This document shows, piece after piece, positions 1 to 47,614 of a stretch of DNA of 64,000 nt. The number at the start of each line of letters is the position of its first letter. Position 1 is the stretch's first letter. The notes below the pieces were generated by a model. The model had not been told where the DNA came from, searched no databases, and was given only the letters and a program-made list of their open reading frames with translations. The position numbers and the translations under genes were made by a program. This stretch comes from an uncultured Clostridia bacterium (GTDB lineage Bacteria; Bacillota; Clostridia; Oscillospirales; Acutalibacteraceae): NCBI GenBank assembly GCA_944380675.1, contig CALWIH010000002.1, positions 280-64,279 on the forward strand. Direction: 5' to 3'.

Positions 1-2253
1 GCCGGTCTTCACGAACTCGTAGCGGATGGCCTGCAGGTAATGGCGCATATGCACCTCTTTGCCGTCGCCGTCGGAGGCGGCAAGGAAGGCGGCGTTCAGG
101 ATGCAGTTCTTGATGTTGCCTCCGACGAACTCGAACCGTTCCGCAAGGAAGCGCAGGTCGACGTCGTCGGCCAGAGGGGTGCCCTTCGGGATCGTCGTCT
201 TCCAGAGGATGTAGCGCGTCTCCGGGTCAGGGAACTGGAACTCGACGATGAACTTCATGCGGCGGAAGAACGCCGGGTCGATGTTGTGCTTGTAGTTCGT
301 CGCGAGGACGGACACACCGTCGTACGCCTCGACCTCCTGCAGCAGGAGGGCCGTCTTGTTGTTGTTGCTCGCCTGGTTGCTGCCGCCGTCGTCGCTGCGC
401 TTGGCGAAGAGCGTGTCGCACTCGTCGAAGAACAGAACGACGTTGCACTTTTTCGCCTCGCGGAAGATCATCGAGATGCTCTTTTCCGTCTCGCCGACGT
501 ACTTGTCGATGACCTTCGAGAGGTCAACGCGGTACAGCTCGAGGTTCAGCGCGTTCGCGAGCACCTGCGCGCACATCGATTTGCCGGTGCCGGGCGCGCC
601 GAACAGCAGCACGGAAAGGCCGCGGCCGTACGGGTACTTGCGGTTGTAGTCCCACTGCTCGTACACCTGCTTGCGGTAGCGCATCTGGTCGCACGCGTGC
701 TCGAGCGCTTCGCGCTGATCCTTCGACATGACGATGTCGTCCCAGGTGTAGGTGGCCTTGATCTTCGTGGCCTTCTTCGTCAGCTCGTGGCTCATCTGGT
801 TGTAGCACGCCTGGAAAAGGCACGAGCGCACAATGTTGAGATATTTCGCCATCGCCGAGAGCGACTTCGCCTGGCGCAGGGCGTTCTTGATTTTTCCGGG
901 GGTAAAGAGGAATTTCGTCGCCATCTCCTGCAGGTCGACGTCGTTGCACAGGACGTAGTCCTTCGCGTAATGACGCCACACCTCCTCGCGCTCCTGATTG
1001 CTCGGCGTCGGGATCTCGAGCTGCGTGAACTCGATCTGCGTCATCTCGCGCAGAGGAAGCTTGTCACGGCTGACGGTGAACGTCGTGATGCCGTGCTTCG
1101 AGAGCTTCTCGAAGGCCAGATCCATGTAGCCGAAGAACTTCTCCTTCTCCTCCTCATGGTACTCGAGGCTGTCGAGGCAGCAGCAGGCGTCGAGCAGGAT
1201 GCACTCGCGGCACAATCCCCAGAGCGCCTTCTCCACGAAGGAGAAATCATACGCGAACAGCTTGCTGCCGTTGACGGAGACGCAGGCGAGCCCGCGGTCG
1301 GCGCAGAAATGGCGGATGGTGAATTTGCGCCCCGCGCCCTCGTCGCCGAAAAGCGAGAACAGACGTGTGCCGTCCTCGTAGGAGATGGTGAGCGCGTCGA
1401 GCACCTCGCGGTTCGCGATGAACGGATCGAGCTCCTTGTCGTCCGTCAGAAGGGTGAAGAAGCGATCGTAGGTGTCGTCGATCCGCTCCGGATGCTTGCC
1501 GAACAGGAAGTCGATGAGACGCTTGTCGGGCGAAATCGGCGTCGAGAACGGCATCGACGGATCGATGCGCAGGTCAATGACGGGACGGAGCGTCTCGAGC
1601 GCCAGCGACATCTCGCCGTACGCCGTCGTCATCGAGAAGCCGTCTCTGTAGTAGACGCGGGCGGCGGACTCAACCGTCGGCGTCGGGGAGGAGCCGTTCT
1701 GGTTGACAATCTGAAAAATGGACGCGTAATTCGTCTGCGTCGAGGAGAGAATCGCGCACGCAAAGCAGAACAGCGTGAAGTCGTCCATTTCGAGCTTCTC
1801 GCTGAGCGCGTAGAGCGGCAGCGGTGTGACGGCGGGGTCGGTGTGCGCGGCGCGGCTTCGCACATAGCGGAACAGCTCCTCAATGGAGGGAGCCGAAGCC
1901 TCCTGCACGGCGGCGCTCTCCGGCTCAGCCTGCGCGAAGCCGGCGAACAGCTCCATCAGATCGCTGTCCTCCTCGAGCGCGGAGATCCCCTCCGGCGCGG
2001 ACTCCGGCGCTTTCGGCGCGGTGCGGGCGGAGAAGTCGGCCAGATGCTTTTCACAGAGGCTGTAGGCGGAATCGATATCGGGGTACAGAATGTTGCGGAA
2101 GCTCCCGTCCTCCCGGGCAAAGAGATCCATCAGGCTTCGGATATGGGAGGAGAGCTGCAGGTCGACGCAGGAGAACAGATAATCTGTGTATTCGCCGTAG
2201 CTTTCAAACGGCTTCTCCATCGTCTCGGGGGAAAAAACGGCGGTCAAATTCAT
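1..2253 (-). CDS. AAA+ ATPase, eCIS Afp15/Pvc15-like (3' end runs off the window edge)
   Basis: Missing from the ORF track; read by hand from ATG at 2253 (MNLTAVFSPETMEKPF...), open to base 1. C-terminal AAA module has Walker A LFGAPGTGKS, YRVDLSKVIDKYVGETEK, Walker B LFFDECD and ATN..IDPAFFRR. A degenerate first module (GDEGAGRKF) lies upstream. Confidence 0.9.
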   Translation of the reverse strand, partial: MNLTAVFSPETMEKPFESYGEYTDYLFSCVDLQLSSHIRSLMDLFAREDGSFRNILYPDIDSAYSLCEKHLADFSARTAPKAPESAPEGISALEEDSDLMELFAGFAQAEPESAAVQEASAPSIEELFRYVRSRAAHTDPAVTPLPLYALSEKLEMDDFTLFCFACAILSSTQTNYASIFQIVNQNGSSPTPTVESAARVYYRDGFSMTTAYGEMSLALETLRPVIDLRIDPSMPFSTPISPDKRLIDFLFGKHPERIDDTYDRFFTLLTDDKELDPFIANREVLDALTISYEDGTRLFSLFGDEGAGRKFTIRHFCADRGLACVSVNGSKLFAYDFSFVEKALWGLCRECILLDACCCLDSLEYHEEEKEKFFGYMDLAFEKLSKHGITTFTVSRDKLPLREMTQIEFTQLEIPTPSNQEREEVWRHYAKDYVLCNDVDLQEMATKFLFTPGKIKNALRQAKSLSAMAKYLNIVRSCLFQACYNQMSHELTKKATKIKATYTWDDIVMSKDQREALEHACDQMRYRKQVYEQWDYNRKYPYGRGLSVLLFGAPGTGKSMCAQVLANALNLELYRVDLSKVIDKYVGETEKSISMIFREAKKCNVVLFFDECDTLFAKRSDDGGSNQASNNNKTALLLQEVEAYDGVSVLATNYKHNIDPAFFRRMKFIVEFQFPDPETRYILWKTTIPKGTPLADDVDLRFLAERFEFVGGNIKNCILNAAFLAASDGDGKEVHMRHYLQAIRYEFVKTG

Positions 2254-2966
2254 CACGATTCTCCTTCGTCCTGAGAGTAGTGAAACACATAGCCCGCGCC
2301 GCGAACCGTGCGGATGAGGCCGTTGTGCTCCGCTCCGATTTTTCTGCGAAGATTGGAAATATGTACCATCACGGTGCGCGTGTCGCCGCAGCTGTCCGTG
2401 TTCCAGACGTTCTCATACAGCTCGTCGTACAGAAGCAGCGTGTCCGGGTGCCGGATCATGTACATCAGGAGATCAAACTCGATGGCGGACGTCGGGACGA
2501 TCTCGCCGTCTCTGCGCACCTCGCGCAGATCGGTGTCCACCGTCAGGCTTCCGAACTCCAGCCGGTGGGGCTTTTCCTGGCGCTTCAGGCGTTCCTCGTA
2601 GAGCTCCCGCTTGCGCAGGTTCGCCTGAATGCGGGCGATCAGCTCGACGTGCTTGACCGGCTTGACCATATAGTCGTCGCCGCCCTGATCGAGAGCCGAG
2701 ATGATGCTTTCGCTGTCGTCGAGGCAGCTGAGAAAGAGGATGGGGCACAGGCTGTCCTTCTCCCGAATCAGCGGACACAGGGAGTTCCCTCTGCCGTCCG
2801 GCAGGATGGAATCGAGCAGGACAAGCTGATAGCTGACGCGCTCGAGCAGCTCCCGCGCTTCGCCGCAGCTTGCCGCTATGTCGACCGCATATCCGGCGTG
2901 GGTGAGATAGAAGGATGTGATGTTGGCCAGATCACAGTCATCCTCTACCAATAAAATGCGGTTCAC
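2253..2966 (-). CDS. OmpR/PhoB-family response regulator
   Basis: Receiver motifs ILLVEDD, LVLLD, DDYMVKP; winged helix RTVMVHISNLRRKI...TVRGAGY. Its TGA overlaps the ATPase ATG (TGATG). Confidence 0.95.
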   Translation of the reverse strand: MNRILLVEDDCDLANITSFYLTHAGYAVDIAASCGEARELLERVSYQLVLLDSILPDGRGNSLCPLIREKDSLCPILFLSCLDDSESIISALDQGGDDYMVKPVKHVELIARIQANLRKRELYEERLKRQEKPHRLEFGSLTVDTDLREVRRDGEIVPTSAIEFDLLMYMIRHPDTLLLYDELYENVWNTDSCGDTRTVMVHISNLRRKIGAEHNGLIRTVRGAGYVFHYSQDEGES

Positions 2967-3254: not shown

Positions 3255-4271
3255 ATGGAGGCCACGCGCGTTTTGGTTTTGGCTGCCGCCTCTCTCCTGG
3301 CAGCCGGTCTCGGGGCTCTTCTCCCGGAGCTGCCCTTTCCTGTTCGGCTTCTGCTGATTGCCGCGGCGGCCGGACTGACGGCGCTGCAGCTGTCCTTCTG
3401 TTTGCAGGCCGGAGCGGAGAGGGAGAAAAAGCTTCGCGAGACGCAGCTCCGCCTTGAGGAGGCGGAGCGCCACGGGGAGGAGGCTGCGCAGCGCGTGCGC
3501 GAGGAGGCGCAGAAACGGCAGGCGCAGACAAAGGAAAAGCTCGCCGCGTTTTACAGCAAGGCCTCGCACAGCCTTCGCGTCCCGATTTCCGTCGTGCAGG
3601 GATATGCCGATCTGCTCGGCAGCGGGCTGATTCAGGATGAGAGCGTCAGAAGGGAATACCTCAATAAAATCCGCGAGCGCACGGAGTATATGAGCACCGT
3701 TCTCGGCCAGCTTCTCGCGGAGGCCCGCGTGCAGACCGATCTCAGCATTGCCTTCTGGGACAGGTTTGACCTGGTGGAGCTGCTGCGTCAGATTACCGGC
3801 GATATGCAGGAGGCGGCCCTGAAGCTCGGCACAACCATCCGCCTCGTGTCCGAGGTGCGCCGCCTTCCCTTTGAGGGGGACAGGACCCGGCTGACGCGAG
3901 CCTTCTACAATATCCTGGAGAACAGCCTCAAATATATGAACGCCGCGGGCCGCATCACGGTGACGCTCTCCGTCGTGGAGGGAAAGCAGGTCTTCCTTGT
4001 CTTCAAGGACGACGGCGCCGGGATGGATCGCGAGGAGGCAGAGCACGTCTTCGAGCTGAACTACCAGGGCTCGAACGGAGGGCAGGGCAACGGAATGGGG
4101 CTCTATCTGGTGTATGTCACGGCGCTCGCGCATCACGGAAGCGTCAGCGCGCGCAGCGCGCCGGGAGCCGGTATGACCATCCGGATGCTTCTTCCGCTGG
4201 AGCAGAGGGAGAACGCGGCCCGCAGCCGTGCGCGGGAGGCCGCGCAGCCGGATACGGAAAACGCATCGTGA
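3255..4271 (+). CDS. Sensor histidine kinase (two close N-terminal TM helices, no extracellular domain)
   Basis: H-box SHSLRVPISVVQGY, N-box NILENSLKY, G1 DDGAGM, G2 GNGMGL; 338 aa. Confidence 0.93.
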   Translation: MEATRVLVLAAASLLAAGLGALLPELPFPVRLLLIAAAAGLTALQLSFCLQAGAEREKKLRETQLRLEEAERHGEEAAQRVREEAQKRQAQTKEKLAAFYSKASHSLRVPISVVQGYADLLGSGLIQDESVRREYLNKIRERTEYMSTVLGQLLAEARVQTDLSIAFWDRFDLVELLRQITGDMQEAALKLGTTIRLVSEVRRLPFEGDRTRLTRAFYNILENSLKYMNAAGRITVTLSVVEGKQVFLVFKDDGAGMDREEAEHVFELNYQGSNGGQGNGMGLYLVYVTALAHHGSVSARSAPGAGMTIRMLLPLEQRENAARSRAREAAQPDTENAS

Positions 4272-4369: not shown

Positions 4370-4468
4370 AGGGAGGGTAAAATAGTCCGTTTGAAATGAC
4401 GCGCCGCCGGGCGCTTTTCAGGTTCAGGGAGAGACAGGAACACAAAAATCTGCTGTGAGGTGTATTTC

Positions 4469-6256
4469 ATGGAAAATCGTCAGCTTCTGCCGTTTGAACG
4501 AAACCGCTATTACGTCGGCAAGCTTTTGACCTCTGCTGATTTTCAGGCCGAGCAGAGCTACTTTAACAATAAACGCCGCTTTCTCAATCAGATGATGTTT
4601 GGAGCGGGGATCGTCTGCGGGCTGAGCGTATACAGCCTCGATGATCTCTCCGTCATGGTGGAATCCGGCGCAGCCATCGACGGCCTCGGCCGCGAGATTG
4701 TGGTGGAAAATTCCGTCGTGCGCAAGCTTTCCGCCATCGAGGGCTTCGAATCCCTCACCGGCGAGCACGCCGCCCTCTGCCTGCGCTATCGCGAGGAGGC
4801 CGTGCACCCCGTCTGCACCGTCAACCGGATGGAGCGCGACGAGGAGTATGAGCTCAACCGCCTGCGCGAGGGCTGGGAGCTTTTCCTTACCGACGCGTCG
4901 GAGCTCGGCGGGGAGGAGGCCCCGGAGTCGGAGTTCCTCCTGCAGTCGACGCTCTATGAGGACGCCGATTATTCCGTCACCGTGACGGCGCCCGCCGTCG
5001 CGAGCTGCGGCAGCGCTCTGAAGGTGCTGGTTCGCATTCAGAAGACTTCTGAGGCGGACGGCAGATTTTCCATCGACGGCGTCCTGCAGGCGCCCGCCTT
5101 CCTCACGTCCGACGGCGGCCATGAGGCACGGATTCACGCGGTGGATCTCGCTTTGGAGAAGGACGAGTATTTTGACTGCGTCTGCTGGCTTTCGGCGCAG
5201 CAGCCCGCCGACGAGGCGATTCTGCTGGCAAAGACGGACACGATGCGCATCACGGTCAACGGAGCGGAAAAGCCTGTGCCCGATTCCTTCCTGCTCAAGC
5301 TTTCGGTCTCCTCCGACTCTGTTGAGGACATCCTCTCCCGCGAGGTGGGCCGCGCCAGCCTCGAGACGCGCAGCTTTTCCGCGCCGCCCGAGTACATCCG
5401 GCTCGCCGACATCACCCTGCAGCTGACGAAGAACGCCTACATCATCGACCGCGTCGAGGAGCGCGGCGTGAAGAAATATCTCCATACGACCTCCGGCGAG
5501 GAGACGCGCCGCGCCTACGCGGAATGGTTCTCCGCCGCCGGGACGGACGCGCCCGCCGCAGCCGCGCAGCTGCGCGAGCAGAGAACCGGCGGCCTGACCT
5601 TCCAGGAGCCGCTTTACGCGACCGGCACCTGCGAAATCCCGCTCGGCGACAGAGCGCGCCGCGGCGAGACCTTCTTCTCCGGCGAGATCATGCACGGCCT
5701 CGGCCCCGGCAACGTCTTTGTCCAGGTCGGCTTCGAGTATCTTGCCGAGGACTCCCGCCTCTTCTCGACGGCCCGCAACACGATTTACGGCGACGTCTCC
5801 CTTTTTGAGGCGGAAAAGCTTCCCGTCCCGACGGCGCAGACGGCCGTGAAGGTCATGAACGACCGCGGCAGCTTCGTCGTCGCGGCGCGGCTCGAGAAGG
5901 AGACGTCCTATGTGATGCTCCTCATGCGCTGGGTCGCCGTCAAGATGCCGTCTGAGGACGACCGCGCTCTCCTGCAGAAGATCGCCGACAAGAGCATCAG
6001 CGCCGTGCAGCCCACGATTCTTCTCGGGACGCACGAGAGCTGCTACTTCAACGTCCGCTTCCGCAACATGGAGCCCTGCGGCCTGACGTACGAGCTGACC
6101 GACAGGGATTCCGGCGAAATCACGCCCGACGGCGTATATACGGCGCCGGCGCGCGAGGGCGTGTACGAGATCCGCATCAGCTGTGCCGACGCGCCGCTGA
6201 TCTGCACCTATGCCTATGCGATCGTGAAGAAAAAAGAGCGCGGGGAAGGCGAATGA
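4469..6256 (+). CDS. CIS-associated protein with N-terminal fibre/baseplate-anchor-like domain and C-terminal Ig-like domain
   Basis: ATG 4469 follows GAGGTG (ORF track opens at GTG 4460). I recognise the N-terminus PFERNRYYVGKLLTSADFQAEQSY...RRFLN..FGAGIVCGL from phage-tail/CIS loci. C-terminus GEITPDGVYTAPAREGVYEIRI looks Ig-like. Confidence 0.55.
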   Translation: MENRQLLPFERNRYYVGKLLTSADFQAEQSYFNNKRRFLNQMMFGAGIVCGLSVYSLDDLSVMVESGAAIDGLGREIVVENSVVRKLSAIEGFESLTGEHAALCLRYREEAVHPVCTVNRMERDEEYELNRLREGWELFLTDASELGGEEAPESEFLLQSTLYEDADYSVTVTAPAVASCGSALKVLVRIQKTSEADGRFSIDGVLQAPAFLTSDGGHEARIHAVDLALEKDEYFDCVCWLSAQQPADEAILLAKTDTMRITVNGAEKPVPDSFLLKLSVSSDSVEDILSREVGRASLETRSFSAPPEYIRLADITLQLTKNAYIIDRVEERGVKKYLHTTSGEETRRAYAEWFSAAGTDAPAAAAQLREQRTGGLTFQEPLYATGTCEIPLGDRARRGETFFSGEIMHGLGPGNVFVQVGFEYLAEDSRLFSTARNTIYGDVSLFEAEKLPVPTAQTAVKVMNDRGSFVVAARLEKETSYVMLLMRWVAVKMPSEDDRALLQKIADKSISAVQPTILLGTHESCYFNVRFRNMEPCGLTYELTDRDSGEITPDGVYTAPAREGVYEIRISCADAPLICTYAYAIVKKKERGEGE

Positions 6257-6296: not shown

Positions 6297-7151
6297 TTGG
6301 TTTTTCATGCGGATGATATGCTCCTTTCACCCGTCCGGGAGGTGCTCCGCGGGCCGGTGAACGATATCCTGGTCTGCCGGGATCTGCGCTCCTCTGCGCG
6401 CAGCAGCTACCTCCTGATCGCGATTCGCGACAGAGAGACGGCGAGGCGCGTCCTCGCTGTGCTGCAGAGCTCCCAGCGGGAGACGGGGGGAAAGAGCCCG
6501 TATCTGAAAATGTTCACGGAAAACGAGTATCTCTGCTTCCTGTTCGAATACCGCCCCGAGCGCCGGCTTGACCGCTTTTCCGACGGCCAGCTCACGACGC
6601 CGCAGTCGCGCGAGCGCGTGTGCGTCAACCTTGTGATGGAGTGCCTGTCGAGCGCGCTGCCGTTCCCGCTTCTTTATCTTGCGCTTGAGAAGGAGAACGT
6701 CCACCTGCTGCAGGACGACGGCGTGTATCTCACCTGCTGCTTCGATCTCAGCCGCCTCGACGAGTCGATCGGCGAGGCCGAGTGCGCGGATCGCTGCGTG
6801 CAGATCCTTCTCGACCTTCTGCGCCGCCAGTCGCGGCGTCAGCTCAAGAGCTTTGAGCTTCTGCGGAAAAAATCCGAGCGCGGCGCGTACGGGAGCCTTC
6901 CGGAATTATACCGCGATATCCGCTTCTCCTCGCTCCCCGAGCAGAAGACGCCGTTCCGCAAACGGTTGGCGGCCTTCTGGGAGCGAAACAAGGATCTCTT
7001 TTTCCGCATTCTGCTGCGCGTCTGCGTGATTCTTGCCGCCGCGGCGGTGATTATTCTGATTTGCCAGCTTCTGTTCGGCGGATTCCCGCTGCTTCGCCTG
7101 TTCCAGAACACCTTTGAGGTGATTGGGACGGAAAATCTGACGATGGCCTGA
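6297..7151 (+). CDS. Membrane-anchored protein with probable pseudokinase fold
   Basis: TTG start. LEKENVHLLQDDGVYL resembles the kinase catalytic-loop region without HRD or DFG. Single C-terminal TM (ILLRVCVILAAAAVIILICQLLF). Confidence 0.5.
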   Translation: MVFHADDMLLSPVREVLRGPVNDILVCRDLRSSARSSYLLIAIRDRETARRVLAVLQSSQRETGGKSPYLKMFTENEYLCFLFEYRPERRLDRFSDGQLTTPQSRERVCVNLVMECLSSALPFPLLYLALEKENVHLLQDDGVYLTCCFDLSRLDESIGEAECADRCVQILLDLLRRQSRRQLKSFELLRKKSERGAYGSLPELYRDIRFSSLPEQKTPFRKRLAAFWERNKDLFFRILLRVCVILAAAAVIILICQLLFGGFPLLRLFQNTFEVIGTENLTMA

Positions 7152-7167
7152 AAGGAGGAAGCCCGGA

Positions 7168-9696
7168 ATGAAAAAAGCGATTGCAGCCGTGGTGCTGCTC
7201 GGCGTTCTGCTTGCCGCCGTGCTCGCCGCGACGCCCTCGGGTCTTCCCAATCTGTCCGGCGCGCAGCATACGCTGGCCCTCACGGAGGATCAGACGGCTT
7301 ATGTCGCGGAAAACCGCGAAGCCGTGTCGTGGATCTATGGGCTTGACAGCGCGGGCGCCGTGCAATCCGCTTATATGGACGCGGAGGGCCATCGGATTCT
7401 TCTTCTCACGGCGTTTGAGAACAATGTCTATTTCGTGCGCGCGTCCCGTTCCTCTGAGAATTGGGAGCTTTGTCTGCTGAAGGACGCTGAGGCGGAGACT
7501 GTCTTCTCCTCCTCGAGGGACTATCCCGATCCGCCGTCGTCCGTCAGCGTCTCTGATTCCGGAATTGATTTGACCTTCCTCGACGGGGAGGACGTCAGCG
7601 TCTGCCGCGTCTCCGGCGAGGGCGAGCCCGTCGAGCTTCTTACGGCGGACGCGCAGGGTGCTCCGGTGACGGCCGCCTATGCCGGCGGAAAGCTCTATAC
7701 CCTCATGACGGACGGGACGATCCGCACCTACAGCGCCGGCGGCACGGCGGACGCGGAGGAGCTCGGCGGCTTCTCGCTGCTCTCCGTCTCGCAGGGTTCC
7801 GTCTGGGCTTACCGGCAGGAGACCGGCTCCGCGTGCGCGGGCGCATCGGCTGTCCGCACCGGTTCCGGCGACGAGCTCAGCAGCGGAGATGTTCTCTGCG
7901 GCGCGCATACCGAAAACGGCGGCGCCGTTCTCTCCGCGGAAAACGGGGAGACGGTCCTCGTCCGGTCGGGCGCTCAGGTTGTCCGCCAGAGTCCGTCGGC
8001 GTCCTTCCGTTTCCGCCTTGTTTTCAAGCTGCCGCTTCTGCTCGCTGTGATGGCGGCGTATCTCGTGTGCGCCGTCGTGCTGCTGCTGACCGTTTTCCTC
8101 TGCGGAAGGGCGAAGCGCCTCGCCGCCCGCGTGACGGTCTGCTGCGCCTGCCTCTTCCTGTTTGCCGCCGGTATCGCCGGCATGATCGCCGTTTCCCGCT
8201 CCGCTGCGGCCGAGGAGGCTTCTCTGCTCGCGCAGGCTCAGACCGCCGGCCAGCTGCGCGCCGATTCGATGGAGAACCTCGCGCTGATCGACACGGAGGA
8301 CGCACTGCTTCCGCTGCTTGACGCCGGGCAGAGCGGCGAGGTGCGGTATGACGCCGTTCTTCTGACGCCGGAAGGCGACAGCGTCCTTCTCTCCTGCCTG
8401 TCTCCGGCCGGAACGCCCGCCCGGACGGCCCTCGGCGCCGAAGCCGGCGCGTTCGCCGAAGTTTGCGCAGAGACGGGGACGAACGCGCAGGCCGTGTTCC
8501 GCAGCGGGACGCTTTGTGCCGTCGACGTGCGCTCCGTGTACTGGTACGGCAGCGAGAGCGCCCGGCTTGTCACCCGTGTCTCCCGCGCGGCGGGAGGCGT
8601 CGACTGGCTCGGCTGCTTCCTGGTTCCCCTGCTCGCCGCCCTCGCGGCCATCTTCGCCGTCGCGATGCTTTCCTTCACGATGCTGCGTCCCCTTCGCCAG
8701 ATGACGCGCCGGATGCGCGCCGTCTCCGTGGGAGATTTCGTGATGCCCGCGATGCGTACGGGCTCCGACGAGGTCGGCGAGATGTGGCAGTCTCTGCGGG
8801 AGATGGCCGTCGCCCTGCGGATCAAGGATTATGAAACGAATGCCACGGTGCGCTCTTTTTACCGGTTTGTGCCGCGCGGCCTTGAAAAGCTGCTTGACCG
8901 GGCCTCCGTCATGGAGACGAGCCTCGGCGATATGGCGAACGTCTCCGGTACGGTGGCGGTGCTCTCCATCCAGAACCGGGAGGATATGCGCCAGCGCCTT
9001 GACGACGACGGCTTTATGAGCTTCTTGAACGACAGCTACTCCGTCGTCGACCGCCAGCTCACGGAGCACGAGGGCTTCCTGCTCTCAAGCGGCTTCGACC
9101 TCGAGGGACTTGACCTGCTGTTCCGCGACTCGTCCGATCAGGGGCTGTCCTTCAGCCTCGGCCTGCTCGGCGAGGTCAACGGGATGGCAAGGGAGCAGGC
9201 GCCGGACTTCTTCCTGTTCCTGCACAGCGTGACCTTCCTCTACGGACTCGTCGGCACGGAGCAGCGCAACTTCTCGCTCCTGTCGTCGTCCGAGCTCTCC
9301 TTCCTCAAGACGCTCTCCCCGAAGTTCCGCCGCACCGGCGTGCGCATCGCGGCGACGGAGGCGTGCCTGCGTTCCATGACGCAGCCGTGCGCGTCCCGGT
9401 ACATCGGCTTTGTCTCGTCGGAGGACGGCAAATACACCTATAAGCTTCACCAGATCCTCGAGGGGTGCTCCGATATGGAAAAATCGCTGTGCCTCTCATA
9501 CGACGATAAATTCCAGAAGGCGATCGGCCTGTTCTGCCAGAACGATTTCTATCTCGCGAGAAACCTGTTCTCCGCCGTCCTCAAGCTCAACCCGGCGGAC
9601 GGCATTGCCCGCTGGTATCTCTTTGCCTGCGAGCACTATTTCAATAACAGCGAGCCGGGCGGAGAGGTTTACAGCCTGTTCGGCATTGAAGATTGA
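7168..9696 (+). CDS. Membrane sensor with HAMP, degenerate class III nucleotide cyclase domain and C-terminal TPR-like region
   Basis: Signal/TM, extracellular region and further TMs; HAMP LRPLRQMTRRMRAVSVGDF...DEVGEM; cyclase-type SFYRFVP..LL...LGD...TVAVLSI...FLN; TPR-like tail FQKAIGLF...ARNLFSAVLKLNPADGIARWY. Confidence 0.75.
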   Translation: MKKAIAAVVLLGVLLAAVLAATPSGLPNLSGAQHTLALTEDQTAYVAENREAVSWIYGLDSAGAVQSAYMDAEGHRILLLTAFENNVYFVRASRSSENWELCLLKDAEAETVFSSSRDYPDPPSSVSVSDSGIDLTFLDGEDVSVCRVSGEGEPVELLTADAQGAPVTAAYAGGKLYTLMTDGTIRTYSAGGTADAEELGGFSLLSVSQGSVWAYRQETGSACAGASAVRTGSGDELSSGDVLCGAHTENGGAVLSAENGETVLVRSGAQVVRQSPSASFRFRLVFKLPLLLAVMAAYLVCAVVLLLTVFLCGRAKRLAARVTVCCACLFLFAAGIAGMIAVSRSAAAEEASLLAQAQTAGQLRADSMENLALIDTEDALLPLLDAGQSGEVRYDAVLLTPEGDSVLLSCLSPAGTPARTALGAEAGAFAEVCAETGTNAQAVFRSGTLCAVDVRSVYWYGSESARLVTRVSRAAGGVDWLGCFLVPLLAALAAIFAVAMLSFTMLRPLRQMTRRMRAVSVGDFVMPAMRTGSDEVGEMWQSLREMAVALRIKDYETNATVRSFYRFVPRGLEKLLDRASVMETSLGDMANVSGTVAVLSIQNREDMRQRLDDDGFMSFLNDSYSVVDRQLTEHEGFLLSSGFDLEGLDLLFRDSSDQGLSFSLGLLGEVNGMAREQAPDFFLFLHSVTFLYGLVGTEQRNFSLLSSSELSFLKTLSPKFRRTGVRIAATEACLRSMTQPCASRYIGFVSSEDGKYTYKLHQILEGCSDMEKSLCLSYDDKFQKAIGLFCQNDFYLARNLFSAVLKLNPADGIARWYLFACEHYFNNSEPGGEVYSLFGIED

Positions 9697-9724
9697 CCGG
9701 TATTCGGGGAAAGGCGGGTGACCG

Positions 9725-10984
9725 ATGAACAGAATATTGCAGACGCTGTACGCCTCGATTCAGGCGAAGGTCATGGGTCTGTGGACGAAAATCCGCCTTT
9801 GGACCAGCCGGGCCTATTGGGAATCGAAGGGGATCACCACCCTTCGGCAGTTCTTCTCGAAGCTCCTGAGCATCAAGCCGCGGGACAAGACGGACTATTA
9901 TTCCGTATCCCGATGGCTTGTCAGCAAGCGTCTTGCCTTTGCGCTTGTGGTGCTGGTGGGACTGGCGAGCGTTTTGTACATCCTTGTTTTTTCCCCGGTC
10001 AATTCCCTGTTCCAGAGCGACGGGACGACGCTTCCCACCTATTGGTACAATTCCATCCCGCTCAAATTTGCCGGCGGGAAGGTGCAGATTCTTGCGGCGG
10101 ACGGCCACCTCGCCTATGTCGGCGACGTCGCCGACGGGGAGGCCGCGGGCGCAGGAAGCCTGTACCGCGCGGACGGCAGCCTCGTGTATGAGGGCGCCTT
10201 CGCCGAAAGCCGCTACAACGGGACGGGCAGCCTGTATTTTCCCGACGGCGTGCTCCAATATCAGGGCGAGTTCGCGGACAACCTCTATCAGGGGCAGGGA
10301 AAGCTTTACCGCCAGACCGGCGTGCTGGAGTATGAGGGCGAGTTTCTCAAGGGGATGAAGTCCGGCGCGGGCGTGCTGTACAACAGCGGCGGGACGCCGA
10401 TCTTCACCGGGAATTTCCTCGCGGACCGGCTTCTCTACGCCGAGTTTGTCGGCAAGACGACGGCGGAGGCCTCCCAGATGTACACGGGAAGCATCAGCGT
10501 GTACAGTTCGTCGAACGAGTACTGCGCGTCCATGGACGAGATCCATGCCGTCTACACGACGGCAGACGCCTCCGACACGCTTTCCGAGGAGTGGACGATC
10601 AGCCAGGTGCTCGTGGAGGATTCCGTCTTCCCCACTGCGGAGGGGGAGATTTCCACCATCAACGAGCTGACCGCCTATTTCGGAGAGCCCTCCTACTTCG
10701 GCTACACCTGGCCGACGCTCACGGAGGCCGTCGCGATCCGCAGGCTGAGCGAGGCGGGGAAGGGCCGCTTCGCCGACATCGAGATGGAGACGACGTCGTC
10801 GCTCCGGGATGTCGTCACCGTGAATTCCTACGATTTGGACTATGAGCTTTACATCTATACCTACGAGATGGACGGCCTGACGTACACCTTCTACTGCGAT
10901 TCAAGTACGTCGAGCTTTTCCATGTACGCGATTGAACAGAGCGATTCGGCTTCGGCGGAAGCGCAGCAGGAAGGAGGAGAGTGA
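9725..10984 (+). CDS. MORN-repeat membrane protein
   Basis: One TM (LAFALVVLVGLASVLYILVF) followed by repeats YEGAFAESRYNGTGSLY, YQGEFADNLYQGQGKLY, YEGEFLKGMKSGAGVLY. Confidence 0.85.
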   Translation: MNRILQTLYASIQAKVMGLWTKIRLWTSRAYWESKGITTLRQFFSKLLSIKPRDKTDYYSVSRWLVSKRLAFALVVLVGLASVLYILVFSPVNSLFQSDGTTLPTYWYNSIPLKFAGGKVQILAADGHLAYVGDVADGEAAGAGSLYRADGSLVYEGAFAESRYNGTGSLYFPDGVLQYQGEFADNLYQGQGKLYRQTGVLEYEGEFLKGMKSGAGVLYNSGGTPIFTGNFLADRLLYAEFVGKTTAEASQMYTGSISVYSSSNEYCASMDEIHAVYTTADASDTLSEEWTISQVLVEDSVFPTAEGEISTINELTAYFGEPSYFGYTWPTLTEAVAIRRLSEAGKGRFADIEMETTSSLRDVVTVNSYDLDYELYIYTYEMDGLTYTFYCDSSTSSFSMYAIEQSDSASAEAQQEGGE

Positions 10985-10986
10985 GA

Positions 10987-13029
10987 ATGAAGAGGAGACG
11001 GAGCCTGCGGCAGGCAGTCAGCGTGCTGCTCTGCTTCTGCCTGATTGCGCCCCTGTTTGTCCTGTCGCCCGTCAGCGCGGCGGCTCCGAAAACGCTCCAG
11101 CTTCAGCAGGCCAGACGAATGGTGCTCACGAACAACTCCGAAATCACAAAGACGTACAACGAGATTCTTCTGAAGGAAATCCAGTATACGGAGGCCGTAA
11201 AGGAAATCAAGGCGAAGGTCAAGAACCTCACAAGCTTCCGCTGGACGCCGCTGCTCAGCTTCAAGTTCCCCGAGCAGCTCGACATGAGCGAGGAATATGA
11301 CCTCAACGTCAAGCCTCTCAACCTGCAGACGGAGATTGACGTGCTCCGCCACAAGATGGCGATGATGGAGTACGACGAGCTCGCCCGCATCAACAACGCG
11401 TTTCTTGACGCGTATGTCTGTCAGGAGAAGGTCTCCTTCAACGAGGAGCGGCTTTCCGCCGCGGAGACCGACCTCGCGAGGAACAAGGCGCGGCTGACAA
11501 CCGGCGAGGCAACGCAGGCCGACGTCGACACGATGCAGTCCACCGTCGATTCGCTCACAAGCGACCTCGCGCAGCTCAAGCGAAACCTGCAGACGGCGCT
11601 CGAGGAGGTCAGCGACCTCATCCACCTCGACGTGACCTCCGGCTACACGCTCGCCAGCCCCGTGGTGGACGCGCAGATCCCGCGCGGCGACCTCGAGGAT
11701 ATCATTGAGCACGCGATGGAAAACAGCCAGACGATCTATGAGGCGAAGATGGCCGTCTCCACCGCGCAGGTCAACCTCGATTCCTATGAGTCGCTCATGC
11801 GCAGCCAGTACGGCTCCAAGCTGAATGTCATCAACAACTTCCTGACGCAGGTCAGAAACGGCGAGGACGTCGATTACGCGGCTTTCCAGCTCAAATACAA
11901 CGAGATGCTTGCATCCTTCGATCGGCCGTGGAACGGCTCCGTCCGGATTTTGTTCTTCAAATTCACCAAGGAATGGTTCAAGGGCGAGATCGACGGTACG
12001 CGCTATATCGAAAACGACCTCTATGCTCTGATGACGGCGTGCAAGGAGTATACGACCGCCGTTACAGAGCTGGAAGCCGCGGAAAAGACGCTGCGCAGCG
12101 AGATTACCTCCAGCTACGAGGCGATCGTCACGGCGCGCAACGCCTACCTCGGCCTTGTGGAGTCCACGGAGCAGGCGAGAGAGGACCTCGAGCGCCTCGT
12201 CGCCCTCAACCAGCTCGGCAAGGCGGAGTACAGCGAGGTCAAGACAAAGCAGGACGAGTACCAGTCCAATCAGCTCGACATGATCGACGCGCTCGCCACC
12301 TACGACGAGCTCCTCTTCAATCTTGACGCCACGACGTGCGGCGCGATTACCCCCTATCTCGAGGGGACGAGCGTGAGCACGAGCGCCGGCTCCGGCGGCG
12401 ACAGCATCGTCACCGACGACGCGACCGTGCCGCACTATTACATCTATACCGACATTTCCGACATGGTTTTCGTCTTCGGACTTGAGATTCCCGAGGAGTT
12501 CGAGCCCGCCGTCACCGATTATGAAATCTGGTACAGCGGCACGCAGATCGGCGAGCGCACGCCCGTCGGCGAGCAGCTCCGCCATCTCGCGCTCGACTAC
12601 AAGGGCACCTGCACCCTGACGGTCCGCCTCTACGAGGGCGAGGACTTCGTCACGGAGTGCGAGATCGATACGACGGTCACGCGCGACATTCTTCCGATCG
12701 AGGCCGCGCAGGCGGAAACCGTGCCCGAGGACACGCAGTGCGGCGCCTACTCGGTCGACACCGTCTCCCACGGCTCGCTGAGCACCAGCACGCTGACGCT
12801 CTCGCTCGACGCCTCCACCGGCGCGAAGTACTTTACCCTCGTCAGCGGCAGCGGTTCGAGCGTCTATACGGAGGAGCCCGTCGCGGCGGACGATACCTTC
12901 TCGTACCTGACGCTGCTCATCAGCAGCCTGTCCGACGTGACCATCCGCCTCTACGACGCGGACAAGAACGAGATCGGCACAGCCTATTTCAACGAAGATA
13001 CCCAGACCATCTGGATGACGGCGCAGTGA
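10987..13029 (+). CDS. Secreted TolC/outer-membrane-efflux-protein-like helical protein with C-terminal beta-rich extension
   Basis: ATG 10987 after AGGAGG; signal peptide ending VSA/AA. Two TolC-like repeat starts (TLQLQQARRMVLTNNSEI; DLEDIIEHAMENSQTIYEAKMAV), each followed by long amphipathic helices. Confidence 0.6.
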   Translation: MKRRRSLRQAVSVLLCFCLIAPLFVLSPVSAAAPKTLQLQQARRMVLTNNSEITKTYNEILLKEIQYTEAVKEIKAKVKNLTSFRWTPLLSFKFPEQLDMSEEYDLNVKPLNLQTEIDVLRHKMAMMEYDELARINNAFLDAYVCQEKVSFNEERLSAAETDLARNKARLTTGEATQADVDTMQSTVDSLTSDLAQLKRNLQTALEEVSDLIHLDVTSGYTLASPVVDAQIPRGDLEDIIEHAMENSQTIYEAKMAVSTAQVNLDSYESLMRSQYGSKLNVINNFLTQVRNGEDVDYAAFQLKYNEMLASFDRPWNGSVRILFFKFTKEWFKGEIDGTRYIENDLYALMTACKEYTTAVTELEAAEKTLRSEITSSYEAIVTARNAYLGLVESTEQAREDLERLVALNQLGKAEYSEVKTKQDEYQSNQLDMIDALATYDELLFNLDATTCGAITPYLEGTSVSTSAGSGGDSIVTDDATVPHYYIYTDISDMVFVFGLEIPEEFEPAVTDYEIWYSGTQIGERTPVGEQLRHLALDYKGTCTLTVRLYEGEDFVTECEIDTTVTRDILPIEAAQAETVPEDTQCGAYSVDTVSHGSLSTSTLTLSLDASTGAKYFTLVSGSGSSVYTEEPVAADDTFSYLTLLISSLSDVTIRLYDADKNEIGTAYFNEDTQTIWMTAQ

Positions 13030-13051
13030 CGCCGGGAAAGGAGGGGACGAC

Positions 13052-15733
13052 GTGAAGCGAAGGAGAATTCTGGCGACAGCGCTCGCACTTGCCGCCGTCG
13101 CGGTGATCGGCGTGTTTACCGTCCTGGTACAGGCAGTGTGGAACGAGGACGAGGCCGTTCATATCACGCCCTCCGAAATTGAGAATTCGACCCTCGCCAT
13201 CGGCACCCATCTCATTCACCTCTCCGCATTGACGGACGAGCTGTACGAGATTGCCTCCACCTCGGCGGAGGAGTCGGGGCAGGGCGAGGTTTACTACAAA
13301 TCCGAGCTCGCCGACGGAACATGGTTCAACATCACGACCGCTTCCTCGCTCGAGGATATCACGACGGGCGGCACGCCTGTGCTCGAGTCGGAGATTGCCG
13401 AGCTGTTCTTTACCCATCACACGAAGTCGGACGGCGTCACCTACGACCTGCGCACCGGCGAGGCCGTGAATCCGTACGACATCGTCGACCCGTACGACAT
13501 CGAAACGCTCGACGAGCTTCTTCCGCTCAAGAATCAGTATGAGCTGATCCGCGAGATGCAGGGAGACAGCGCCGCCGGCAAGGAGAAGATTGCGAAAATC
13601 GAGGCGATTCTCCGCACCGAGGTCAGAAACGAGACGACCGATCGGTGCGACGCCAATCTGGAAGCGCTCCGGCGCTATTACAACGTCCTCGCGGAGAACG
13701 ACGCTCCCGCCGATCAGCTGAGCGCCGTCCAGGAGGTCATGACCGCTGTCGACGCGACGCGCCGCGCCGAGGTCTTCTCGACGCTCGAGACGATCCTCAA
13801 CGAGTTCGCGCAGGAGCTGCCCCGCATCGAGGACACCGCCGGCAGCGAGGAGGAGGAGGGCTCCGAGGGCCGCAGCCCGGACACGGAGCTGCAGTCCGCG
13901 GCGAACGACAGCCTCTCGAACGTCCAGTCCTCGCTCATCGAATACCAGGGCAAGATGCTCGACGAGGGCACGACCGTCGCCTCCTCTCTCAAATTCACCT
14001 ACTCCAACGACCTCATCGACCATGCCAACGCCGACAATCACGCCGCGTGCGACGGCGACGTGCAGAACCTGCTGCACCTGTCGAATATTTCCTCCGGCGT
14101 TGTCGCCGATAAGCAGGGCGAGCTCGATCTGCTCGACGCTTCGATTCTCCCCGCGGCGACCCAGGCGTATCAGGACGGCCTCTCAGCGGGCGTCAGTGCG
14201 GACTACGTCGCGGCGGCAGCCTCCAATTCGTCCGCGGCCCTGCTCCAGCAGCTCATCAAAACGAATCAGAGCAACGTCAACACCTCCCGCAACGAGCTTG
14301 AGACGTATATCTCCGCGAAGGTGCTCCGACTCTCGAACGAGGACGGCAAAGCGTTTCTCAACGAGCGGCTCGAGCAGACGCAGGAGTATTACAGTCTTGT
14401 CCCGAACGACGATTTCTCCGCCAGCATGGGGGAGACGATCGACAGTCACATCGAGTTCCTGACCGATCAAATCCGCCAGCTGGAGCTCGACGCCGGCGGC
14501 AATGAGCTCGACCGGCTGATAGCGGAGAAGGCGTCGCTCCAGACGGACTATATGTCCGCGCTCGACGAGAACGATCTCATGGGCGCGAAGGCGATAGAGG
14601 AGCAGATTGCCGATCTTGACGCGAAAATCGAAGCGCTTCAGAATGAGCAGACGGACGCGCTCAACGCCGCGCAGACAGCTCTGTCGGAGCTTCAGGAGCA
14701 GCTGGCGAACGCAGAAGCGGGCAGCGCCGAGGCCGCCGCTCTCGAGAGCGAAATTGCCGCCCTCAAGGCGGAAATCTCCTCCCTTGAGTCCGGGATGAGC
14801 GAAAATTCGCTCGGCGAGCTCGTCGCCCGCCTCAAGGCGGAATGCCTTGACATCATCGGCGAGACCTCCTCGGACGATCCGCTGCGCGATACGCTGCAAA
14901 ACGATATCGACACGCTCGCTTCCCTCCTCGATCAGAACGTGAAGCTCGTCTTCCCGGCGCTGCAGGACATCTATTCGGCCCTGCTCGAGGAGCGCGATCT
15001 CAACGGCGACAGCTCCTACGGAGACGAGATCGCCGCGGTGGAGGAGGCCATCCTCGGCAGCAAGACCGCCTACGACGCCTCGCTGCAGGGAGAGCTCTCC
15101 GCAGATCGAATCCAGGAGATCGCGGACGGCTTCCTCGAGGGAGAGGCTGATTCTCTGCTTAATTCCGGCGCGGGACTGACCCTGGGGTCGGGAAGCGGTT
15201 CCGGAGCGGGATCCGGAACGCCGGACGTCACGTCCCTCTCCGAGTTCGAGAAGAACGCCGTGTACCTGCTGGGCCTGCAGAAATTCTACGACGCGACCCA
15301 CAGCGCCGCGGCTCTCCGGCTCATCGGCTCCAACGCGCAGAAGCAGATGAATCTCGGCAATTCTCTCGTTTTCCGTCAGGTGGAGGATCCGTCCATGGAA
15401 TACGTTCCCGCCTCGAGCGCCGCGCAGGCGGCCGGCCTGCGGTATGTCTGGAATCAGAACAAGAGCCAGGGCACGCTCGCGAAGGGCAGCCTCTACTATA
15501 CCTTCGCCGCCTACTCGGATCTCGTGCAGCGCGGAAGGACGGAGGACAGCTATGAGCAGATGACAAAGGCGGCCAAGCTGACGGGTGAGACGCTCTATCT
15601 GCCGGAGGACTACACCGGCGAAGCGTTCTCCGTTACGGCCTGCTATCTGACCCAGACGGCGTATGCCGTGATAGAGCGCGAGGATCTCACGCTCCTGGCC
15701 GACGAGCTTTGTTCGCTTCTTCTGGCAGCCTGA
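13052..15733 (+). CDS. Large N-terminally anchored coiled-coil protein with C-terminal copper-amine-oxidase-N (stalk)-like domain
   Basis: N-terminal TM/signal; heptad-rich middle (IEEQIADLDAKIEALQNEQ...LESEIAALKAEISSLE); GS linker; C-terminal YVPASSAAQAAGLRYVWNQ...TLYLP. Confidence 0.6.
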   Translation: MKRRRILATALALAAVAVIGVFTVLVQAVWNEDEAVHITPSEIENSTLAIGTHLIHLSALTDELYEIASTSAEESGQGEVYYKSELADGTWFNITTASSLEDITTGGTPVLESEIAELFFTHHTKSDGVTYDLRTGEAVNPYDIVDPYDIETLDELLPLKNQYELIREMQGDSAAGKEKIAKIEAILRTEVRNETTDRCDANLEALRRYYNVLAENDAPADQLSAVQEVMTAVDATRRAEVFSTLETILNEFAQELPRIEDTAGSEEEEGSEGRSPDTELQSAANDSLSNVQSSLIEYQGKMLDEGTTVASSLKFTYSNDLIDHANADNHAACDGDVQNLLHLSNISSGVVADKQGELDLLDASILPAATQAYQDGLSAGVSADYVAAAASNSSAALLQQLIKTNQSNVNTSRNELETYISAKVLRLSNEDGKAFLNERLEQTQEYYSLVPNDDFSASMGETIDSHIEFLTDQIRQLELDAGGNELDRLIAEKASLQTDYMSALDENDLMGAKAIEEQIADLDAKIEALQNEQTDALNAAQTALSELQEQLANAEAGSAEAAALESEIAALKAEISSLESGMSENSLGELVARLKAECLDIIGETSSDDPLRDTLQNDIDTLASLLDQNVKLVFPALQDIYSALLEERDLNGDSSYGDEIAAVEEAILGSKTAYDASLQGELSADRIQEIADGFLEGEADSLLNSGAGLTLGSGSGSGAGSGTPDVTSLSEFEKNAVYLLGLQKFYDATHSAAALRLIGSNAQKQMNLGNSLVFRQVEDPSMEYVPASSAAQAAGLRYVWNQNKSQGTLAKGSLYYTFAAYSDLVQRGRTEDSYEQMTKAAKLTGETLYLPEDYTGEAFSVTACYLTQTAYAVIEREDLTLLADELCSLLLAA

Positions 15734-15751
15734 GAAAGGGAGGACAGCAAA

Positions 15752-16345
15752 TTGGCAGATTACTCCATTATTTCCGACGTCTCGGCGTACCTCGTGAAGC
15801 TGCTCCGCCAGCGAATGTGCCCGGAGCCGATTCCCTCGCCGAACAATATCGAGGTTTCCTCCCCCGCGGAGCAGGACGTCGACTATATCCTGGGCCTCTA
15901 CCTCTACGACATCCGCGAGGAGGGGGAAATATCCGTCCCGCCGCTTGTCGGCGCGGGCAGGACGCGCCTGTCGCGTCCGCCGAAGCCGTACAGCCTCTAC
16001 TATATGCTGTTTATCAACGGCTCGTCTCAGATGGGCCTGAAGGCGCACGATATTCAGAAAATCATCGGACGCGCCGCCCAGGTCATCAACGACGGCAATA
16101 TCGTCTATCCGAACCAGCTGCAGACCTGGCTGGAATCCCCGGAGGCGCCCATCAGCATCACGCCCTCGAAGATTTCCCTCGAGGATAAGGTGCGCGTGTG
16201 GTCGGCCATCAATAAGCCCTACCAGGTCAGCCTGTTTTACAAGGCCGCGCCCGTGCTGCTCTCGAGCGAGATCATCGTTGACGCGCCGCGCGTCACGCAG
16301 GCGGACTTCACGCTCCACCTGACGGGCGAAAGCAGGGAGGGATAG
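15752..16345 (+). CDS. DUF4255 / Pvc16-Afp16-like tail terminator (cap) protein
   Basis: TTG start after GGGAGG. Motifs ISDVSAYLVKLL, LGLYLYDIRE, PYSLYYML, SLEDKVRVWSAINKPYQVSLFY. Confidence 0.85.
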   Translation: MADYSIISDVSAYLVKLLRQRMCPEPIPSPNNIEVSSPAEQDVDYILGLYLYDIREEGEISVPPLVGAGRTRLSRPPKPYSLYYMLFINGSSQMGLKAHDIQKIIGRAAQVINDGNIVYPNQLQTWLESPEAPISITPSKISLEDKVRVWSAINKPYQVSLFYKAAPVLLSSEIIVDAPRVTQADFTLHLTGESREG

Positions 16346-16348
16346 CCG

Positions 16349-28228: not shown

Positions 28229-28248
28229 CAGGCGAAAGGAGCGTCCTC

Positions 28249-31693: not shown

Positions 31694-31753
31694 TCCCCAT
31701 GCGGGCGGCGGTCTGCGGAAGAAAACAATATGGGAACCGGGAGGAAATCGGAA

Positions 31754-33868: not shown

Positions 33869-33891
33869 TCGTGTGAAAAGGAGAGAGAGCC

Positions 33892-36936: not shown

Positions 36937-36962
36937 TGGTTTTTCTACCTCCCCTTGGAAAA

Positions 36963-41222: not shown

Positions 41223-41250
41223 AGGAAACGGTTCCTTTCTGTATTCAGAG

Positions 41251-41270
41251 GGGCGAAGCGCGCTTCGCCC
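41251..41270. repeat. Perfect 20-bp palindrome between the RsbW-like and NRPS genes
   Basis: GGGCGAAGCGCGCTTCGCCC; no downstream U-tract on the coding (minus) strand. Confidence 0.6.
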
Positions 41271-41351
41271 GAAAAAGCATGGGAACGCCTGAAAAAGCCG
41301 CTGCTTCCCGCCGGACAGGCGAGAAGGTCAAGGGCGGACGCGCCGTCCGCC

Positions 41352-45186: not shown

Positions 45187-45202
45187 AGGAGGCGAATCAT
45201 CC

Positions 45203-47604: not shown

Positions 47605-47614
47605 CGCTCCGGAG

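Follow-up and report, generated by a model that had tools for sequence, protein, structure and literature searches.

How a contractile injection system (CIS) acts from, or through, a thick-walled cell with a single membrane is an open question to which few answers are known: particles released by lysis, the cytoplasmic suicide systems of Streptomyces with their membrane protein CisA, and a minimal membrane-bound system of haloarchaea. The subject here is a CIS locus of an uncultured Clostridia bacterium of the Acutalibacteraceae, analysed in a window of 64,000 nucleotides (contig CALWIH010000002.1, positions 280 to 64,279; ‘the window’ denotes this whole stretch), and in particular five consecutive genes within it, termed M1 to M5, whose products carry signal peptides or transmembrane (TM) segments. 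The injection system of this locus comes with an envelope module of a new type, no published description of which was found in the literature. The module gives a candidate link between the injection system and the envelope of such a cell.

The CIS of the haloarchaeon Halogeometricum borinquense, which resembles the type VI secretion system (T6SS), fires while membrane-bound. This mode correlates with a conserved, linked membrane-protein gene, and the nearest relatives of haloarchaeal Cis11 are found in Bacillota (PMC11566945). Like the locus described here, it is a cluster of the extracellular CIS (eCIS) type, and the cell that carries it lacks an outer membrane. The candidate anchor, Hbor_38620, is a single protein with six TM segments and a cytoplasmic domain of 150 residues, and no complex is seen outside the membrane, whereas the present module, compared by description, comprises five proteins whose extracellular parts are large and whose cytoplasmic domains are of the dead-enzyme kind.

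CisA of Streptomyces coelicolor (SCO4242) is also a membrane protein of a monoderm. Its cytoplasmic N-terminus is predicted to bind the baseplate, it is needed for firing, and it is encoded at the position usually taken by a fibre gene (PMC12237407). M3 shares its bitopic layout, a comparison that concerns layout and not sequence. CisA, however, is one protein with a substrate-binding-like ectodomain, encoded at a locus without a fibre gene, whereas here a MORN ectodomain is accompanied by four partners.

In the T6SS itself, TssK and TssG dock on TssJ-TssL-TssM, and the idea shared with the present locus is that of a multi-protein envelope complex encoded together with a contractile machine. 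Resemblances have been noted between Tail_P2_I and TssG, and between eBAP3 fibres and TssK (PMC12923769). The envelope here, in contrast to that of the T6SS, has no outer membrane; M1 to M5 gave no match to the TssJ, TssL (DotU) or TssM (IcmF) families at E<=0.1 in Pfam or NCBIfam, and no ClpV-type recycling ATPase was identified.

Afp and PVC have in common with the locus a core of sheath, tube, spike, gp25, Baseplate_J, cap (DUF4255), AAA+ ATPase and a CIS13-family gene. To our knowledge, neither has a membrane module of this kind. The TolC-like pump proteins of monoderm Firmicutes (PMC8809574) have the fold of M4, and both occur in hosts that lack BamA; M4 differs from them in having no pump partners, in its tip insertions, in two extra Ig-like domains and in its linkage to a CIS.

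A five-gene module conserved with its injection system

The complete CIS locus extends from about 4460 to 34953, where every real gene lies on the forward strand with a G+C content at third codon positions (GC3) of 0.71-0.87. All parts expected of an eCIS are encoded (sheath, tube, VgrG-like spike, gp25 and Baseplate_J, by Pfam), as are the hallmarks that distinguish an eCIS from a canonical T6SS, namely the DUF4255/Pvc16_N cap and the AAA+ ATPase. The lineage has been termed subtype IIb in a related family: an eCIS of the Acutalibacteraceae is assigned to that subtype in a preprint, which names neighbouring ‘toxin secretion systems’ in passing, without analysis.

M1 to M5 lie between the fibre-like CIS13-family gene and the cap gene. 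From the former through the module to the latter the gaps are 40, 16, 28, -4, 22 and 18 nt, the start of M4 overlapping the stop of M3 by 4 nt. A Shine-Dalgarno-like motif precedes each of the five genes, and their GC3 (0.80-0.87) is similar to that of the adjacent CIS genes. Terminator-like sites are no more frequent than chance would give (19 against 13.4 +/- 4.8 expected), and none falls in an intergenic gap of the module. An earlier note on this stretch had described five tightly spaced, co-oriented genes in this position, each encoding a TM segment or signal peptide, with no terminator among them; this description is borne out. Its five domain calls, namely pseudokinase-like for M1, HAMP and pseudo-cyclase for M2, MORN for M3, TolC-like for M4 and a coiled coil with a stalk domain for M5, also held, the pseudo-cyclase moderately.

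Each module protein has at least one strong hydrophobic segment, be it a signal peptide or a TM segment. Among the CIS structural proteins only two have such a segment, and in both it is marginal (residues 313-331 of the sheath and 107-125 of the 396-aa protein). This bears on whether M1 to M5 could be parts of a free particle, for example a fibre network or a decoration. Their genes adjoin the fibre-like gene, and phage fibres often contain coiled coils and Ig-like domains. Nevertheless, none of the five matches a PHROG tail family and, because each carries a signal peptide or TM segment, they would be directed to the membrane and not to a particle built in the cytoplasm. Membership of the particle is therefore highly improbable.

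A pattern scan of species-representative genomes found relatives of M4 in 178 species, and genes were mapped around the best 80 of these. The 80 loci come from Oscillospiraceae, Lachnospiraceae, genomes labelled Gracilibacteraceae and metagenome-assembled genomes of termite-gut ‘Family XIII’, and reach down to 35% identity; the counts that follow take only contigs with enough room. A sheath gene lies within 10 kb of M4 in 59 of 62 loci, and the CIS13-like gene, M1 and M3 stand upstream of M4 in all 62. M5 adjoins M4 in 68/68 and M3 adjoins it in 76/76. The genomes of the three loci without a near sheath (L069, L070 and L074, all from Lachnospiraceae) carry a 68%-identical sheath elsewhere, in L069 on the same contig, 29 kb downstream. 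The same gap follows M5 in all three. In L069, the one locus in which the inserted gene was read, it encodes a giant RHS-repeat protein (14937-21932; >2332 aa). This protein has a Sec signal peptide, for which reason it was rejected as a candidate for CIS cargo.

Among 400 evenly sampled Clostridia genomes, a sheath was found in 12 and the M4 family in three, all of them sheath-positive and with M4 adjoining the CIS. Full-length M1 was present in four, again all sheath-positive. Within the genus M4 occurs in 8/8 species, against 0/33 of the further genera sampled from the family and order, and database-wide its orthologues number in the hundreds, mostly without a name, with a few annotated as ‘TolC family protein’. 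The co-occurrence with the sheath that the earlier note had put forward as a check is thus seen both around the mapped loci and across the class. As for its reservation that homologues might occur mostly without a CIS, this fails for M3, M4, M5, full-length M1 and the fibre-like gene and applies to M2 in part, as set out below.

The association survives rearrangement. The order CIS13-like-M1-M2-M3-M4-M5-cap-...-sheath-tube is seen in the genus and in three distant contexts at about 50% identity, one of which has wholly different upstream flanks. In one sublineage the cap gene has moved upstream and is still found with the CIS. The most distant among the M1 relatives found also lie within CIS loci, in a four-gene variant of the module (AAA-cap-CIS13-like-M1-M3-M4-M5-DUF4280-sheath). 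One Clostridia lineage has a sixth gene, encoding 1139 aa without a family match, between M5 and the cap (L107, genome G191, 15005-18424).

A sister CIS lineage, whose sheath is 51% identical, has neither M4 nor M5. In one of its genomes an M1-like gene (profile E 1e-16), a MORN gene and an M2-like gene form a block with the genes for the cap and the PAAR-like protein, and this block follows the baseplate and CIS13-like genes. In a second genome only an M2-like and a MORN-like gene are near the CIS, and the CIS13-like gene follows the baseplate genes. The M3 homologue of this lineage has a MORN score of 2.4e-23. Since the sister lineage has only M1-, M2- and M3-like genes, it appears that these three form the older set, that M4 and M5 joined it later, and that in the lineage of the window the whole block was shifted to the operon's front. 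Elsewhere, a complete 4.8-Mb Clostridia genome (G163:C1, 3550273-3572681) has a sheath gene whose halves are split by an in-frame TAA, with an M2-like gene about 20 kb away, and may hold a decaying CIS.

Could the module instead be an unrelated efflux or signalling operon that merely abuts the CIS? M4 attracts a TolC-family annotation, and operons joining RND (resistance-nodulation-division) pump genes with TolC-like genes exist in Clostridia; weak M4 matches occur in 13 other genomes of the class sample, and in two informative contexts these are TolC-like genes in RND-pump operons. The module, however, has no transporter or adaptor gene, as Pfam found no RND, ABC, MFS or HlyD family that could serve M4 as a partner, whereas the pump-type relatives do have such partners. 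An independent operon was rejected on the linkage to the CIS in the best 80 of 178 species and in the class sample, which persists through rearrangement, and we give this explanation almost no weight.

BamA/Omp85 is absent from the organism's own 93%-complete genome, the same search being positive in 7/7 diderm controls, and the host looks monoderm. We hold it to be nearly certain that the module is a dedicated accessory set of this CIS lineage in monoderm Clostridia.

The module proteins

M1 (284 aa) has a single TM segment close to its C-terminus (238-256). Its AlphaFold2 model (AF2; pLDDT 91) has the bilobal fold of a protein kinase, with a Foldseek E of 5e-7 and more than 1100 PDB matches at E<=0.001; among the 50 PDB matches listed nearly all are protein kinases, PknB included. 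A sequence profile of M1 found nothing useful in the PDB, the only match being NEK1 at E=1. Column counts over 42 orthologues show that the conserved beta3 (VAIK) lysine, the HRD motif, the catalytic asparagine and the glycine-rich loop are missing, and that only a partial xDL is left at the DFG site. On the predicted fold, M1 is a tail-anchored pseudokinase. The 24-residue tail beyond the TM segment, residues 261-284 on the outside, is conserved. Cysteines 27, 116, 163 and 167 are kept in 38-41 of the 42 orthologues and may form a metal or redox site. On a 1.4-kb metagenome contig (P0209), a predicted protein of 329 aa has residues 1-160 of an M1 orthologue fused in frame to a Tail_P2_I protein, at the middle of the latter; this is either a deletion variant from which all of the CIS core has been lost or an assembly chimera.

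M2 (842 aa) has four TM segments (4-22, 291-309, 324-342 and 483-501) and a HAMP domain (Pfam 1.5e-6), which was found in 20/39 orthologues. Its PDB matches to chemoreceptors and kinases cover the TM-HAMP region, and with the full-length profile HAMP alone is detected. The cytoplasmic part consists of a conserved domain of 290 residues and a TPR-like tail. A profile of this domain on its own matches class III cyclases over the whole catalytic domain, best bPAC (E 1.2e-4) and also CyaB, AC5/8/9, Ma1120 and sGC. In the alignment with bPAC both metal-binding aspartates are replaced, one falling in a Ser-type column and the other in a column that is not conserved. The Pfam model PF00211 (Guanylate_cyc) was undetected in M2 orthologues, and a six-frame search found Guanylate_cyc neither in the genome itself nor in 25 relatives. 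Because the Pfam cyclase model misses the domain, its identification as a pseudo-cyclase is supported only moderately. Across orthologues the two ectodomains share 9-17% identity and the cytoplasmic part 34-51%; the ectodomains are the sole fast-evolving parts, as would be expected of an input that senses a cue. Receptors of the M2 type, with the putative dead-cyclase domain, were also observed amid housekeeping genes of Clostridia without a CIS (L114-L116, in genomes G338, G196 and G121), and six genomes with such receptors are merely 0.8-1.0 Mb in size.

M3 (419 aa) has a conserved cytoplasmic N-terminus of 69 residues, a TM segment (70-88) and an extracellular part of tandem MORN repeats (Pfam 6.6e-12; PDB profile 7.7e-21) followed by a C-terminal domain. 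The CIS13-like protein encoded immediately upstream of the module belongs to the fibre class reported to resemble TssK, which connects baseplate and membrane in the T6SS (PMC12923769). Its C-terminal third has a mean identity of 56% across orders. A sequence profile of this protein found nothing useful in the PDB. Such conservation fits a constant, self-encoded partner better than it does diverse target receptors.

M4 (682 aa) has an N-terminal signal (13-31) followed by the full helical architecture of TolC and the outer membrane factors (OMFs). It scores 31.3 bits with the Pfam OEP model against a cut-off of 22, with two TolC-repeat matches, and 37.4 bits with NCBIfam TIGR01844, which is under the curated cut-off of 225. 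In Foldseek searches with its AF2 model (pLDDT 82) the top 44 matches are all OMFs, with E down to 2.7e-11 over about 480 columns. Two Ig/FN3-like domains close the C-terminus. At the sites of the membrane strands of TolC, the monomer model has segments of 17 and 31 residues with strands of merely 2-4 residues. It is moderately firm that M4 lacks the four membrane-spanning strands per protomer that make up a 12-strand barrel, and that only vestigial strands are left. These two tip segments show the highest conservation in M4, with mean identities of 81% and 65% against about 45% elsewhere. M4 is homologous to the TolC-like protein of an RND operon (hhalign probability 96%) and has two conserved tip insertions that are missing from the pump-type protein.

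M5 (893 aa) consists of an N-terminal anchor (6-24), a juxtamembrane domain (30-165; 63% identical) and a long coiled coil. Cu_amine_oxidN1 was detected in 18/41 orthologues (best E 2e-8), and a sequence profile of M5 found nothing useful in the PDB. Contact with the membrane or with the outside tail of M1 may be made through the most conserved patches of M4 and M5, the tips of the former and the juxtamembrane domain of the latter.

Docking, firing and other possible roles

That the module has been kept with the CIS across at least two orders of single-membrane bacteria suggests a role in envelope docking and triggering. M1 to M5 would assemble as an envelope complex whose cytoplasmic face offers three non-catalytic platforms, namely the M1 pseudokinase, the HAMP, dead-cyclase and TPR part of M2, and the conserved N-terminal peptide of M3. 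It is by the conserved C-terminal domain of the CIS13-like protein that the baseplate would dock on these platforms. A cue from outside may be detected by the fast-evolving M2 ectodomains, and the HAMP domain would relay it so as to gate docking or firing. M4, a TolC-fold tube with conserved tip insertions, and M5, an anchored coiled coil ending in a surface-protein domain, would form an extracellular part that crosses the wall, and this part may have joined later, in the Oscillospirales/Lachnospirales branch. The CIS would then work attached to the membrane, after the fashion of the T6SS or CisA, and not as a free particle; the haloarchaeal CIS and CisA provide precedents that make such a mode plausible. 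We put the chance that the module is a docking and firing platform at about even.

A more ambitious proposal is that the whole is a cell-anchored, signal-gated contractile secretion apparatus in monoderm gut Clostridia of the Oscillospiraceae, Lachnospiraceae and related groups, a Gram-positive counterpart of the T6SS made from repurposed parts other than TssJLM. Here the pseudokinase, the pseudo-cyclase receptor, the MORN protein, the barrel-less TolC tube and the coiled-coil stalk would constitute a trans-envelope complex, which would dock the baseplate by way of the TssK-like protein and either guide firing across the peptidoglycan wall or allow it to take place. We consider this less likely than not, and clearly less probable than the platform role as such. 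The earlier note had suggested a trans-envelope apparatus that docks, senses for or exports the particle. The part of this idea that stands is the existence of a dedicated and conserved companion of the CIS. As to its function, docking with triggering has the better support, and export of the whole particle through the module complex is physically unlikely.

Several observations weigh against docking and firing at the envelope. Contact between the module and the particle is inferred. The core is eCIS-like, with its cap, tape-measure-sized gene, AAA+ ATPase and fibre-like gene, and fibres of this type are listed as receptor-binding in a published catalogue (PMC12923769), which suits a released particle. 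M2 is absent from 3/62 loci, and its cytoplasmic-domain family occurs in 15/400 genomes of the class sample, 9/15 of them without a sheath. In sheath-less genomes the M2-type gene is found among housekeeping genes, in one case with the same layout of four TM segments. Given these sheath-less genomes and the three loci in which M2 is missing, M2 is, to judge from its distribution, a recruited member of a wider receptor family. TolC-like proteins of monoderm Firmicutes are normally parts of RND pumps (PMC8809574). With regard to M4 as a tube, the bore of a trimeric TolC-like protein would be far narrower than the CIS tube; M4 is therefore not simply a conduit for the latter, a function that was rejected on size. 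Lastly, the missing lysis genes described below are weak evidence, because such genes could lie on another contig of the draft genome.

These points lead to an ordinary eCIS released by lysis and acting on targets at a distance, with a module that makes no contact with the particle and serves linked regulation, the timing of release or protection of the producer's surface against its own particles or those of sister cells. The gene set of the core and the catalogued class of the fibre (PMC12923769) agree with this, as do the derivation of M2 from a general receptor family and the presence on either flank of regulatory genes, a two-component system and a set of PP2C phosphatase and anti-sigma kinase genes. 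It is difficult to reconcile with five conserved, structural and non-enzymatic proteins encoded inside the operon, between fibre and cap, and kept there through rearrangements. The earlier note had reported neither holin nor endolysin in the window, and none turned up in searches for these families; nor does the window hold a small open reading frame with several TM segments in a coding-like frame, and no lysis-type genes were seen abutting the operon in relatives. The C-terminus of the CIS13-like protein, moreover, is conserved across orders, unlike typical receptor-binding tips. The fibres of Afp and PVC are hypervariable. On balance release by lysis with a non-contacting module is unlikely, though it deserves some weight.

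An alternative of about the same, rather low, probability keeps the membrane contact and changes its purpose. As a trigger of the CisA kind, the module would sense envelope damage or phage attack, recruit a cytoplasmic CIS and cause it to fire into the producer's own membrane. Regulated death of the producer or a function in development would result, as in Streptomyces, and nothing would be delivered to other cells. CisA is itself a precedent: this bitopic protein of a monoderm is essential for firing, and its gene occupies the fibre position (PMC12237407). In M3, too, a cytoplasmic N-terminus is followed by a TM segment and an ectodomain, and in the sister lineage its gene directly follows the baseplate genes. 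M2 has the architecture of a sensor, and family scans found no obvious toxin cargo gene in the operon. Against this, the likeness to CisA concerns layout, the PAAR-like spike tip and the fibre-like gene are retained, and the conserved extracellular machinery (the M4 tube, the M5 protein of about 900 aa and the MORN ectodomain) seems to exceed what a stress sensor needs.

The module also shows how dead signalling enzymes and a TolC fold can be taken up for a new role. Its carriers include abundant taxa of the human and animal gut and some cultured isolates, such as Pseudoflavonifractor phocaeensis An507 (L035) and Oscillibacter valericigenes An890 (L040). If systems of this kind act by contact, they would be an unrecognised way for members of the gut microbiota to compete or to interact with the host.

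Gene map and neighbouring loci

The contig is 64.6 kb long, so that the window is nearly the entire contig, and belongs to a draft genome of 2.7 Mb with 63% G+C. The genes of the CIS locus and of its upstream flank are listed in Table 1.

Table 1. Genes of the CIS locus and its upstream flank, with positions in the window
Feature	Position	Strand	Evidence
AAA+ ATPase (Cis15-like by position)	1..2256, runs off window start	-	Pfam AAA 7.6e-27
OmpR-type response regulator	2253..2966	-	Response_reg + Trans_reg_C
Histidine kinase, 2 N-terminal TM segments	3255..4271	+	HisKA + HATPase_c; TM segments
CIS13-family fibre-like (TssK-like) baseplate protein	4460..6256	+	NCBIfam CIS13_fam N-terminus 9.8e-28
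M1, predicted pseudokinase with C-terminal TM segment	6297..7151	+	AF2 + Foldseek kinase fold; TM segment
M2, 4-TM receptor with HAMP, putative degenerate class III cyclase domain and TPR-like tail	7168..9696	+	Pfam, profiles
M3, TM segment + MORN repeats	9725..10984	+	Pfam, PDB profile, TM segment
M4, secreted TolC-fold protein, two C-terminal Ig/FN3-like domains	10981..13029	+	Pfam OEP, Foldseek
M5, TM-anchored coiled coil, Cu_amine_oxidN1-like C-terminal domain	13052..15733	+	Pfam, TM segment
Cap / tail terminator (Pvc16_N, DUF4255)	15752..16345	+	Pfam 1.1e-29
Conserved protein, 267 aa, no family match	16349..17152	+	Syntenic in most relatives
DUF4280, PAAR-like spike tip	17153..17536	+	Pfam 1.1e-24; NCBIfam IglG-like match
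Contractile sheath	17609..19339	+	Phage_sheath_1 + Phage_sheath_1C
Inner tube (gp19 family)	19378..19875	+	Pfam 3.7e-35
Tail assembly chaperone-like, 120 aa	19949..20311	+	phrog_508 1.8e-6
Two genes: 371 aa (acidic tail) and 915 aa	20547..24439	+	Syntenic; no family matches
Two CIS_tube-family tube-initiator genes	24548..26203	+	PF19266, 1.1e-16 and 2.1e-15
Tail protein (phrog_52), VgrG-like spike (Phage_base_V), gp25 wedge protein	26229..28674	+	Pfam, PHROG
Baseplate: 1011 aa (no family match), 712 aa Baseplate_J-like, 353 aa Tail_P2_I	28658..34953	+	Pfam

The AAA+ ATPase gene is divergent to the CIS operon and stays beside the locus in many relatives, whereas the response regulator gene is gone from some related loci, such as L019. 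In a sister species (G001, L009 2575-6626), an insertion on the reverse strand, encoding a GNAT acetyltransferase and a calpain-like protease of 914 aa, separates the histidine kinase gene from the CIS13-like gene. The true start of the latter in the window is probably the ATG at 4469. The 915-aa protein is a candidate tape measure, judged from position and size alone.

Abutting the end of the CIS operon on the reverse strand (35500-41804) are genes for a SpoIIE-type PP2C phosphatase with about eight TM segments, an NRPS-like C-A-T-reductase of 1419 aa (NRPS, non-ribosomal peptide synthetase) and an anti-sigma-kinase-like protein with HATPase_c_2. The phosphatase gene is found at the same position in three other species of the genus, at 79-87% identity. 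Further downstream, a forward-strand region (43549-56895) encodes a Double-GTPase protein (DO-GTPase1/2), two Hsp70-like proteins, one of them a VWA fusion, a GAP1-M protein and large proteins without a family match; it looks like a GTPase-centred conflict or defence system. A candidate polymorphic toxin-immunity cassette lies near the end of the window (57233-62785), where the gene for a HerA/FtsK-like ATPase of 1147 aa precedes those for an Endonuclea_NS_2 nuclease, a YezG-like immunity protein and a transglutaminase-like protein.

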